NCBI RefSeq assembly: GCF_003704095.1
Contig: NW_020845961.1
Coordinates: 186,001 to 250,000, forward strand
Source: Pocillopora damicornis
Taxonomy: Eukaryota
DNA: 64,000 nucleotides
Direction: 5' to 3'
Shown: piece after piece, positions 33,423 through 37,426 of the stretch
Layout of the letters: every line of letters starts with the position of its first letter
How positions within the stretch are numbered: position 1 is the first letter of the stretch
The notes under the pieces: model-generated
Databases searched by the model: none
Told to the model about the DNA's origin: nothing
Seen by the model: only the letters and a program-made list of their open reading frames with translations
Made by a program: the position numbers and the translations under genes

Positions 33423-36400
33423 TTACTTGCATAGAGCCTCCAGCTTCGCGAGTATCTTGTTTTTGGAGTGTTCACTGTTACTCCAGATTTTCACTATTTC
33501 CTCGATCTGGAAAGGAATCAGAGAAACGTTTGAGCGGTTCGTCCAATTGTCGCACAGATCGTTAATTTAAAAGGTGGGGCACTTCCTCCTGCTGTAGAAA
33601 AGAGTATTGGAAGAGAGGCGATCAAATGGTCTCGTTTTGAGTGAATGTTTGATAATTTTTTCAGTATTTTCTGAACGACTAAGAATCTAGCTTTAGGTAC
33701 ACGCTGTTCACGAGGAAAACAACGTTCCCTTTCACAGTGCAAACTTTTATTCACGATGTACATCACGACAATGTTCAGGGTTTACAACTTGTTTCTATAA
33801 AGGTTGTCGACTCCGAAAAGTATTGTGGGTAGTTTCCAGGCCATTTTTCTTTGACCTCAGGATCTCAGGGAAATCTGAGAAAACGTTAATGTAAGGACGA
33901 GGCATCGTGGGTTTAATAATGAAGAAATGTAAAATGGTTTCCGTGTTTACATAGCCTGATGTAAACACGCGGGAGGTTGGGAGAACACGAGATAAGGCTA
34001 TGTAAACACTTAGCCGGCTAGCAGCATAGCAGGCTATGTAAACACGGAAACCATTTTACATTTCTTTTATAAAATAACTAATGAAAGGGGAACGAAAACC
34101 GTGTTTACATACGCTCATGTAAAATGGTTTTATGGCCAATCAGAGTGCGCGTACTATTTGAATTATTTTATAAATTCATTTATTTATTTGACTGATTAAA
34201 ATTCGTTGATTACTGGACACCCAGATTACCATTCTAGATTTTTGCTGCTTGTCCTTTCGTCTTTCTACCGACAACCTTTCATGAAACAGCTGTATACGGT
34301 ATTAATTTTCGCATAAGGGTGTTTGATAGTGAACATCGGTAATGGCTGGTTATTGTTTATACTGTACCTCTTCAATTGTGTCCTGAAGCTCAGCACATCT
34401 GTCAGTCATCACGCGTAACAGCTGAGCAAACTGAACCATGTCATCAGGCAAGGTTACTGGATTGTGATGAGAAGCGCAACCAAAACCACATAGAACCGCG
34501 CGGAAGCTGGGAAACTGTTGTAAGAAGTAAAGCATAGCAGCCTAAAAATCTTGTGACTATCAAATAAAAGACGTACCAAGTGTTTTGCATAAAACAAAGC
34601 ACACTTTTTCGTGCTTCTTCCTTGGATAACCCACCAACTGTTTGCGTGCCCCTAACTCTTTCGCCTGCCTCAGAAAAACCTTTTCTTGTGTTTCACTTCC
34701 AGCCTTGGATAGGTGTGCCCTTCGAGGGGGTACCTCTAAGCATATATTTATTACACCGTAAACTTCTGGAATCTTGTATTTTATTACCCCTGCTATGGGA
34801 TGTACATCATGTCCTTAGTAAATTGGTTGATGGAATTTGGTGTCGCATTAAGCTAAAACATTGTATTTGATCAGAGAGAGAGTGTGAAGGGCAGTTCTTC
34901 CTATCTTAGTAATTATTATCTACTTGATGGATAATAAGTTTAAATTGTGTTGAGACTAAATATTTTTGTCCTTGTAAGGAGACTAAGGCTTGACTCAGCC
35001 TCTGAGCTAACCTTCATGTAAATATCCTACTGTGTCTACTGTTCTCACAATTCCCCAATTTTATACTTGATAATTTGGTGCTAAACTCGGCAAACAAATC
35101 CTATAGTTGATATGCTCCTTTCTTCAACAGAAATACCCCAAATACTGTCCTCCATTTAGAGCAAAAGTGTGAAAGCTAGCACATGGCGTCTCATGGTACC
35201 TTACGCGTCTCCTACGACAAAGATGCACAGAAGCAGCCTACTTTTAACAAGGATAGACAATTCTATTTCTTACCCTCCCCGTGTCTTTTTGTATTAAAAT
35301 GCTATCAATGTTGATGTTGTTGTGGCAAATACCACACTGGTGTATGAACCGTAAAGCTTGGAGGACATCAGTGGCTAGTCTACAAAGAAGTTTGGCCTCG
35401 AGTATGGCGGCGGATTCGTCCCTCATGAACGCGCCCAGTGTTATGTTTGATACAAACTGGAAGCAGATGAGCCTAATTACGAAAAAAAAAGAAAAGAAAA
35501 AACAACAAACGAAATCATTTCAGTACTCACTTGGAGGCCGTAGTTTGTTTTTGTTCTTTTTTATTAAATTAGCAAGGGGACTACCAATACAGAGAGTTCA
35601 CCTCTCATATATGGTTGGTTTGCGTCACCAATATATGACAGACCCGACGCTATGTAAAGAAGACCTTCAGAATAAGCACATGCACTTAAAAAAAAAATAA
35701 CAACTAGTCTGTTCCTTTCTGCAAAAATGAGTCCTCTTCATCACAGTTTTTATTCTCGTGTATAGAAGTTTAATCATCCATTCATCATCGATTAAGAGTC
35801 GTGAGTAGTCCGCCATTGCGTTCACTTGGCTTTGTAGTGATTGGCCAAGGAGTTTTACCCCATCTCTGATTCCCAACCAATCTGGTTCAAACATGATTTA
35901 CATGGCCATTCACGTTTTCCAGCGCTTTAGGTCGCCTATGTCGAGTTACTCTGACTTCTCTTCGACTCTCTCTGACTTTCCTCTTTGTTCTGAATGCACG
36001 GCATGAATACTTTGATTTTTGTATCGAACCCTTGATCGAAAAGCGCTCTATTGCAAATATCTCATACTCCTTTTCTTACTTCTAGTGATCATAATATTAA
36101 TTATCATGATTGTTAGAAATGATGAAATATTGCTAATGAGGGTGGAGGAACATGAAAGATCGAGTACAGTGTGCCGATAAGACAAAATATTTAAATACTC
36201 TTTCTCTGTATTTTGTCACTCGATTAATAAAATAAAAAGTAACTCACCAGGTTTGCGGTGGCAATGATGGTAGATCACCGTGACTCCTGGTCAGTCGACA
36301 ACCCTCGGCTAAAAATAGAGTGAATTATGTATAATTTGTAGGTCTGGTGGCTAAAAAAAAGGATTTATCACATGTTTAGCTGGATGGGGTCACACTCAGA

Positions 36401-37426
36401 CATGTAAGTGGGATTTTTTCGGGATTTTCCACTGATCTCAGCTTGAACACGACATCGACGATCGTTTAAGATGGTTGTACGGCAAGCGTTACACAAGCGT
36501 GACACGACGGTGGCCGTGTCATGACAACCGAGAGTACTTGTAAAACATGTATTTTGAGCAGTGGCATGCTAGGACACCTTCAACGCCAGGTATTTAGATC
36601 ATCTCACCTTTTAAGTGCCAGAGGTAAGGTAAAACACAGGGATGATTCCCCGTCTGTGACATCTTTATGTAGATGGACACCTCTCTTTCCCACTCTTGTA
36701 ATTTGTCTTGTGAAAACCATTTGACGAGGAACAAAGGAGGTTCGTCGGTTTGCGGATCCTCTTCGCGACAAACTACATAACCCTGTATGATGATTGAAGA
36801 AACAGCCTCAACAAGTTGAATAAGGAGAACTTTCTTAACGATCAAAATAATAACATATACACACTCAATAGGACGTGAGCTCGTGTTCTCCCGATACACA
36901 ATTTTGGTGGAACTCTTATCAGAGTCGGCACAAAATGTTTTTTTATTCGCACTTCCATAAATATATTCTGACTGAGAATGAAGCTTTAAATGAATACCCC
37001 TAAATCCCTTCAGCGACGCCCTTGCCCTCTCCTCATACTTCGAAACTATCCTTGAACGTTGAACGTATTCTGTTCCTTCTGATGTAATTAACCCGAAAAA
37101 AAGCTATTTCGTTTGCATGGCTTTCTTAAACAAATATGTTTGATCAGGGTATGTATCAAATGCCTTGATTCAGAGCTTATTTAATTTCGTGCAGAAAGCT
37201 CTAAAATATTTCCAAGAGATGTAGTTTTGAGAAACTCGTCGAGAATTAAACTCATAAACTCAGCGTCGTACAATTTTGTCACTTGATTCCTCCTGAAGAA
37301 TCAACGGTACTTCAACTATAGTCATGGGAGGGGAGGTAAGATCTGAACTAATACTCCAGTCAATCGTGTTTGCATAATTGCGGTCGGAGGGCATGCTGGC
37401 CATTTCAAGACTTGGATGGGCACGTC
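33423..37426 (-). CDS. Cytoplasmic tail exons of the GPCR gene encoding a degenerate protein-kinase (pseudokinase) fold. Exons 37272-37426, 36608-36782, 36248-36308, 35274-35472, 34368-34514, 33423-33506
   Basis: Kinase subdomains appear in order: FLVKWF (beta3 Lys), EWEREVSIY (alphaC Glu), HPCVL, WLICFQFV..TLGAFM, LATDVLQALRFIHQCGICHNNINIDSILI (HRD loop), RAVLCGFGCA (DFG position), DMVQFAQLLRVM (subdomain IX). Junction phases 1/0/1/2/0/0 all match. The last exon is the least certain. Confidence 0.78.

Follow-up and report, generated by a model that had tools for sequence, protein, structure and literature searches.

The window analysed here, a 64,000-nucleotide stretch of Pocillopora damicornis DNA (positions 186,001 to 250,000 of contig NW_020845961.1, assembly GCF_003704095.1), carries a minus-strand gene in which exons for a degenerate protein-kinase domain are joined in frame, with GT-AG ends, to an exon for the seven-transmembrane (7TM) region of a GPCR (G-protein-coupled receptor). 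Judged from its sequence, the product is a giant leucine-rich-repeat (LRR) GPCR of the LGR/GRL101-like kind: the LRRs, cysteine hinge and rhodopsin 7TM of an LGR (type C / GRL101-like) are all present, and GRL101-like is the database name of the relatives from Stylophora (P0021) and Trichoplax (P0119). RNA contigs from eight runs in four studies, three of the runs only guessed to be RNA, gave the chain 38168-39200 / 37272-37426 / 36608-36782 / 36248-36308 / 35274-35472 / 34368-34514, which extended to an exon at 33506 in the four runs compared over a wider stretch; the other four of the eight, a second set from two further studies, gave the identical exon chain. The joints 37425/38167, 36781/37271 and 33506/34368 were each present in 4/4 runs, as were 34514/35274 and 36308/36608 in the first set, and the 61-nt exon was supported by the contig record positions and listed as a piece of its own in two of four runs in the second set. 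The joined exons form a single frame that closes with a TAA stop at 33425-33423, and the kinase-like domain, 239 aa over six exons, begins about 55 residues past TM7.

One could imagine that these exons are an artefact, a separate kinase pseudogene lying downstream of a GPCR gene. We found no support for this, and two single RNA contigs run from a CUB exon through the 7TM exon into the kinase exons; moreover, a related 7TM exon lies upstream on the same strand in 8 of 10 relatives elsewhere in the genome, and the order 7TM-then-pseudokinase recurs in the models that NCBI gives for Nematostella and for further corals. We therefore give the artefact practically no credence.

The exon at 38168-39200 (minus) encodes the LGR hinge and a rhodopsin-class 7TM (Pfam 7tm_1, E 2e-29; RNA pieces) whose motifs are intact, with ADRL in TM3, CWMP in TM6 and NPILY in TM7. 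The next, at 37272-37426 (minus; MTIVEVPLILQEESSDKI), is placed by RNA joints and paralog alignment and supplies a linker, beta1 and an acidic loop, LQEESSDKI, in place of the Gly-rich loop. Translation and alignment assign beta2, the beta3 Lys (FLVK), the alphaC signature K-x9-W-x2-E and beta4 to the exon at 36608-36782 (minus). The 61-nt exon at 36248-36308 (minus; RNA, and an exon of the same size in 6/6 modelled paralogs) holds a family-specific beta4-beta5 insert, which we take to occupy the position of the L45 loop in the TGF-beta/activin/BMP receptor kinases (STKRs), though it is longer and variable. At 35274-35472 (minus) lie beta5, the hinge, alphaD, alphaE, the degenerate loop HNNINIDS and beta7, and at 34368-34514 (minus; from translation) beta8, GFG, a 12-residue remnant of the activation segment and alphaF (DMVQFA). 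The final coding exon, 33423-33506 (minus; IEEIVKIWSNSEHSKNKILAKLEALCK from 33506 to the stop), carries a degenerate alphaH-alphaI and is identified by its RNA joint and by a homologous phase-0 exon in the paralogs.

A preliminary description of this DNA had placed the domain at 34368-36782. The four exons within that span were right, and the domain limits were not, the exons at 37272-37426 and 33423-33506 having been missed. It had also noted the absence of a GxGxxG loop, and this absence is real, with no unseen exon to account for it, because exon 37272-37426 supplies beta1 and the acidic loop; a 169-aa open reading frame (ORF) at 36594-37103 was ruled out as a hidden source of the loop, the RNA skipping 36783-37271. 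Likewise, the C-lobe is short, as had been said, but it is not cut off at 34368; it is short because the activation segment, alphaEF and alphaG have been lost internally.

The translated exons bear out the remaining motif readings of that description. The domain retains the beta3 Lys (LVK, in FLVK) and the alphaC Glu (WERE); in place of HRDxKxxN stands HNNINIDS, with Asn for the catalytic Asp and Ser for the metal-binding Asn; DFG reads GFG (in CGFG); and there is no APE, the P+1/APE substrate site being gone with the activation segment. The interval from GFG to the alphaF (subdomain-IX) Asp, given as about 12 residues, is exactly 12, compared with 32-52 in reference kinases (60 of 132, those with both motifs readable) and 10-70 elsewhere in the family, of which it is the second shortest such remnant. 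That the kinase resemblance is above chance follows from the Pfam Pkinase match of exon 35274-35472 by itself (E 7e-5) and from matches of the whole domain to the receptor tails of Nematostella (E 6e-26) and Oculina (E 2e-27).

AlphaFold models of two relatives, from Desmophyllum and Pinctada, are confident kinase folds (predicted local distance difference test scores 74.7 and 87.4) that align to kinases with Z 20.8 (root-mean-square deviation 3.0, 224 residues aligned) and Z 18.3 (2.5, 172 aligned), and, taken with the Pfam match, they predict a bilobal protein-kinase fold with subdomains II-XI in order; an ESM Atlas search returned generic kinase clusters only. A pseudokinase is defined by sequence as having lost at least one of the VAIK-Lys, HRD-Asp and DFG-Asp (PMC4718504). 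By this definition the earlier assignment of the domain as a pseudokinase is supported, two of the three residues being lost, and loss is found in most family members as well. For the window paralog, binding of Mg2+ is improbable and that of ATP probably slight or absent, a reading that has to be set against the caution that nucleotide binding is not reliably predictable from sequence (PMC4718504).

The receptor is one of a family. Its catalytic-loop exon matches 12 places in the genome, namely itself, ten relatives whose loops read HNN, HNE or HNG, and one ordinary kinase, and five intron positions with their phases (0,1,2,0,0) are common to 6/6 modelled paralogs, the aligner slipping at two joints. 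A tandem cluster (G000:C4228:230000-530000) holds at least seven pseudokinase exon sets (L002-L005, L007, L009, L011); within it, a second, duplicated set and inverted fragments come after one of the receptors.

Protein searches recovered NCBI models of the family from five stony-coral genera and two family genes from Nematostella, one of them a 3282-aa receptor of like architecture; the Pocillopora models P0010 and P0013 have exon text identical to that of loci L004 and L011. Further relatives came from Trichoplax, the brachiopod Lingula, the starfish Acanthaster and the hemichordates Ptychodera and Saccoglossus, and 31 of 36 matches were mollusc-type proteins, 27 of them named. None of the named family matches bore the name of a vertebrate, an arthropod or a nematode, the searches being too limited to show absence. 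The family is monophyletic (support 100/99), and from these sequences the fusion is ancient and multi-phylum, a point that the preliminary description had not seen.

The bilaterian form lacks the LRR ectodomain and begins with a degenerate 7TM in which the activation motifs are largely lost. In three members tested this region matched the window 7TM with blastp E values of 8e-10, 2e-15 and 0.025, and a Pfam 7tm_1 search of three members gave no match. In this form a long insert between alphaF and alphaH, from several hundred residues to more than 1000, puts alphaH-alphaI at the extreme C-terminal end; this split C-lobe was seen in P0078, P0121, P0153, P0156 and P0157 and in the mollusc matches, and the insert site falls approximately at the place of the last intron in the coral genes.

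Across the family HRD occurs in 0/47 proteins and Asn stands at the Asp position in 39/47, while the beta3 Lys, alphaC Trp and alphaC Glu are kept from placozoans to molluscs. Judged by motif, not every member is dead, which counts against reading the family as wholly non-catalytic: HND....N is kept in 5 of 79 exon matches and was seen among the relatives P0084, P0037, P0094, P0091, P0160 and P0188, Saccoglossus keeps both HND....N and DF, and molluscs keep DF. Given that these residues survive in some relatives, the catalytic residues were lost piecemeal, and by its motifs the Saccoglossus member is the best candidate for residual activity.

These same residues bear on the idea of an atypical kinase that needs no cation, or of a switch that binds ATP, comparable to CASK or STRAD, which would phosphorylate the receptor tail or sense ATP. 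The Lys-Glu pair is present in 15/15 family rows, and CASK is active without the DFG-Asp (PMC4718504). However, CASK retains its Gly loop (PMC4718504), whereas the window domain has lost the Gly loop, catalytic Asp, Asn, DFG-Asp and P+1/APE site together, and we consider such activity in it very doubtful.

The window paralog is among the most degenerate of the family, with an end branch of 1.24-1.33 and a best identity to the family rows of 32-33%, and it is without the CW..RP motif of alphaH. Both features weigh against a conserved role for this copy, and with the 12-residue activation remnant they would suit a decaying relic, retained solely as a folded cap at the C-terminus, with the receptor signalling through G proteins as an ordinary LGR. 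Seven of 12 changes are nonsynonymous among the differences listed, and the last exon lies antisense under the 3' end of another gene. On the other side, the six coding exons have intact frames and splice sites, the Lys, Trp and Glu are kept, and probable orthologous exons in other genomes are 60-64% identical (P0107, P0113). The ratio of nonsynonymous to synonymous change (pN/pS), from the window compared with RNA of related colonies or species, was 0.38 in the pseudokinase (at least seven nonsynonymous and at least five synonymous changes; p=0.09) and the same, 0.38, in the 7TM (at least four and at least three; not significant). The pseudokinase value is not significantly under neutral, which likewise weighs against a conserved role; the preliminary description had read the intact frames as consistent with selection, of which the frames themselves stand and the selection falls short of significance. 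Intact frames and pN/pS together fit mild constraint, and we think a relic unlikely.

The preliminary description had further suggested that the domain derived from a kinase of the tyrosine-kinase-like (TKL) group resembling the STKRs. Among the 132 reference kinases against which we examined this, those assembled from this genome by spliced alignment include five STKRs, JAK JH1 and JH2, receptor guanylyl cyclases (RGCs), TAK1, MLK, LRRKs, receptor tyrosine kinases (TKs) and cytoplasmic TKs, under group labels that we presume from their motifs. IRAK, RIPK and MLKL, against which a phylogeny had been proposed, are absent from the trees together with RAF and ILK, because genome searches did not recover them; LIMK is absent as well. 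A first tree had 65 rows (23 of 88 dropped as redundant or poorly stitched) and a second 60 (14 of 74 dropped as long or incomplete, including Trichoplax; bootstrap not fully settled), and the subset and column-removal trees omitted 11 more reference rows.

The family was sister to the STKRs with support of 94/85 in the 65-row tree and with 962/1000 ultrafast bootstraps (SH-like approximate likelihood-ratio test 94) in the 60-row tree. Bilaterian rows alone joined the STKRs in 935/1000 trees, and in 815/1000 after removal of the beta3-alphaC signature columns. The KWF..QDK..W.RE resemblance pointed out earlier is likewise real and diagnostic. A Lys-to-Glu spacing of 13 is found in 15/15 rows of the family, in 5/5 STKRs and in 1/51 others, the exception being JAK JH2, which is without Glu at that place; four of the 132 references have the whole K-x9-W-x2-E motif, and all four are STKRs. 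Of the STKR-diagnostic columns 4 of 18 recur in 30% or more of the family, and of the RGC columns 0 of 38, other kinase groups having too few diagnostic columns for comparison, and the alphaF FALV of bilaterian members matches the STKRs. The WLI..F hinge, which had been cited to the same end, must be withdrawn as evidence, since its Trp is specific to the window paralog (1 of 11 family rows among the matches listed) and the hinge argument was thus a coincidence.

Several results weigh against this origin. Cnidarian rows alone joined the STKRs in 189/1000 trees, being drawn to a bacterial row (741/1000 without it), and the approximately unbiased (AU) test did not reject a family + tyrosine-kinase sister grouping (p=0.29 and 0.32). 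Profile scores ranked the STKRs 13th to 62nd of 132, profile-profile scores gave 154 for STKR vs 182 for plant/protist TKLs, similarity scores favoured JAK, Src, NEK or plant/protist TKLs, and no TGF-beta receptor stood within the top 60 PDB sequence matches. Structure searches did not separate the kinase groups, the fold scores being tied: for the first model the two leaders, TGFBR1 (Z 20.8) and activin receptor II (20.6), were level with Csk (20.3) and IRAK1 (20.2), for the second these two receptors ranked 6 and 11, and the Foldseek leaders were DCLK1/IRAK4 and TNNI3K/PKR. No GS box (PF08515) was matched in the linker ORF, nor in five relatives at E<=1; PF08515 matched two other loci in the genome. 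The 8-residue STKR insert between alphaE and the catalytic loop is absent, with 5 residues in the window protein and bilaterians vs 13 in the STKRs (4/5 read). None of the introns is exactly common with five coral STKR genes, the nearest being a phase-0 intron before alphaH that is four codons off.

Some of these results would be expected if the same fusion had instead taken its domain from a tyrosine kinase of JAK/Src-like type or from another TKL, the STKR-like Trp motif being convergent or a long-branch effect. Besides the AU result and the missing alphaE-HRD insert, PDB profile matches led by Lck/Csk/JAK3 and TYK2/JAK2/PKR/LRRK2 favour such a source, as does the coral's JAK JH1 model, whose phase-1 intron behind beta4 coincides in position with that of the family. 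Against it, the full-set, bilaterian-only and signature-removed trees all favour the STKRs, spacing 13 occurs in no TK catalytic domain of the set, the bilaterian FALV matches STKRs and the remaining JAK introns mismatch. Intron position was discarded as a marker of origin, the post-beta4 site shared with JAK being the one exact coincidence with STKR, RGC or TK genes. We regard a tyrosine-kinase or other TKL source as a possibility to be taken seriously, if a rather doubtful one; it is compatible with the same docking mechanism proposed below.

Descent from the STKR lineage is accordingly the origin that we favour with some confidence, though it is not proven: the resemblance noted in the preliminary description and the trees agree, and the AU test keeps a tyrosine-kinase sister. 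By sequence the domain is not itself an STKR member. It nested inside the STKR clade in 0/1000 bootstrap trees, and in place of the single-pass STKR topology with its small Cys-rich ectodomain a 7TM precedes the domain. Two other kinase loci were observed in passing. A coral type I-like TGF-beta receptor kinase (L069, G000:C3758:208000-216500) has HCD for HRD and GLG for DFG and is a candidate pseudokinase, and a JAK-like gene (L169-L171, G000:C14:346500-376499) has tandem JH2 (HGR loop) and JH1 domains.

The elements for placing substrate and metal have gone, the N-lobe core is kept across phyla, and we lean towards the domain being a tethered module without catalysis, which would serve for docking or allosteric gating next to a receptor probably still able to use G proteins; the preliminary description had likewise proposed a docking or allosteric role. 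Ligand would bind the LRR/CUB/MAM ectodomain, and the 7TM is predicted still to switch, and to be able to couple to G proteins, because its DRY-like, CWxP and NPxxY motifs are intact. The pseudokinase, whose source was probably a stem relative of the kinases of TGF-beta receptors, would keep a folded N-lobe whose alphaC/beta3 surface may recruit a partner or gate access of G protein or arrestin. That bilaterians have dropped the ectodomain and let the 7TM degenerate while the pseudokinase persists suggests that the pseudokinase carries the ancestral output. It tells against this proposal that the scaffold role is one we infer and its partner only putative. A complex prediction for 7TM and pseudokinase (Orbicella relative) scored 0.02, with the alignment not used, and is no evidence either way. 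More speculatively, a relaxin-receptor-like GPCR might have captured a stem TGF-beta receptor kinase before the split of placozoans, cnidarians and bilaterians, the dead domain docking onto components of the TGF-beta pathway (Smads, FKBP12 or the kinases of type I/II receptors) and so wiring a 7TM hormone receptor into BMP/activin signalling in most marine invertebrates; we think this improbable as it stands. Ligand, partner and knockout tests are feasible, since Nematostella carries the gene (XP_048584250).

GPCRs are thought to signal via separate effectors. Like the receptor-tethered pseudokinases JAK JH2, the RGC kinase-homology domain, ILK and MLKL, the coral domain is a kinase fold without the HRD-Asp near a membrane receptor or effector (ILK, MLKL and CASK are treated in PMC4718504). 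Unlike JAK JH2 and RGC it has no active kinase or cyclase following in cis; the tree places RGC and JAK in other groups, and ILK and MLKL are outside its sampling. With the STKRs it shares K-x9-W-x2-E, the bilaterian FALV and, in the trees, a sister position, but it has no single-pass transmembrane segment, GS box, alphaE-HRD insert or activation segment, its introns differ and its catalytic residues are lost.

The type C LGRs or GRL101-like receptors of cnidarians and placozoans have an LRR ectodomain, cysteine hinge, rhodopsin 7TM and CUB and LDLa modules in common with the window receptor (PMC4079206, PMC9545775), which differs by its 239-aa kinase-fold tail. One cnidarian LGR survey left the C-terminal tail aside as poorly conserved (PMC4079206), and the main text of another nowhere has the word kinase (PMC9545775). 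GPCR-kinase bigrams, in which 7TM and C-terminal protein-kinase domain share one polypeptide, as they share one transcript here (RNA contigs), have been published as GPCR-TKL from oomycetes and amoebozoans (PMC6033456), as GPCR-TKL/K from choanoflagellates and as GPCR-TK from choanoflagellates and sponges. According to the account of the latter two, none is functionally characterised, GPCR-TKs were recovered among metazoans only in sponges, and the 7TMs of acanthoecid GPCR-TKL/Ks cluster with no other GPCRs (PMC12716839). Going by these descriptions, the coral family is set apart by its class-A LGR 7TM, its degenerate kinase and its presence in placozoans, cnidarians and bilaterians.

We found no description of an LGR-pseudokinase fusion in the full-text literature searched, which did not cover supplements and subscription journals, and the fusion is apparently undescribed. 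The receptor is a real, expressed and ancient variant of the GPCR-kinase fusion theme. Whereas the published fusions end at protists, choanoflagellates and sponges, here a class-A hormone-type receptor has a built-in pseudokinase, which six or more animal phyla have kept and which has grown to some ten copies in a reef coral. Should its STKR origin be true, the fusion would record the early capture of a domain between two signalling systems on which animals were founded, and would bear witness, from the stem lineage, to how TGF-beta receptors evolved. The window contributes the family's expansion in the coral, proof from RNA of the whole chain of exons, and figures that test the link to TGF-beta receptors.

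Upstream of the 7TM exon, six minus-strand LRR exons of 72-75 nt (edges good to about 3 nt; RNA joints and translations) lie at 39708-42278, and the CUB exon (Pfam CUB, E 7.5e-23), which shares RNA contigs with the 7TM and kinase exons, at 44869-45213 (minus). Exons for three MAM domains, pentraxin/LamG, LDLa and a C-type lectin follow at 47061-63878 (minus; Pfam, and colinear tblastn with Nematostella P0041); the RNA link reaches only to the CUB exon, and these probably belong to the same receptor gene.

On the plus strand, a ZFR-like gene (zinc-finger RNA-binding), with C2H2 fingers and a DZF domain, occupies 22949-32629. A transcribed piece of its 3' end, 32382-33508 (plus), runs antisense over the receptor's last coding exon (33423-33506, minus), and the ZFR-like 3' end and the receptor are merged in one RNA contig. 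A Ras-family small GTPase exon (Pfam, E 1.3e-19) is found at 19989-20516 (plus). High-copy transcribed repeats, with very high contig depth and many loose ends, lie in the last intron (33868-34334) and in the intron after the 7TM exon (37590-38120), and long simple-repeat tracts in the introns at 51777-52192, 59333-59709 and 61063-61404 give rise to low-complexity ORFs.

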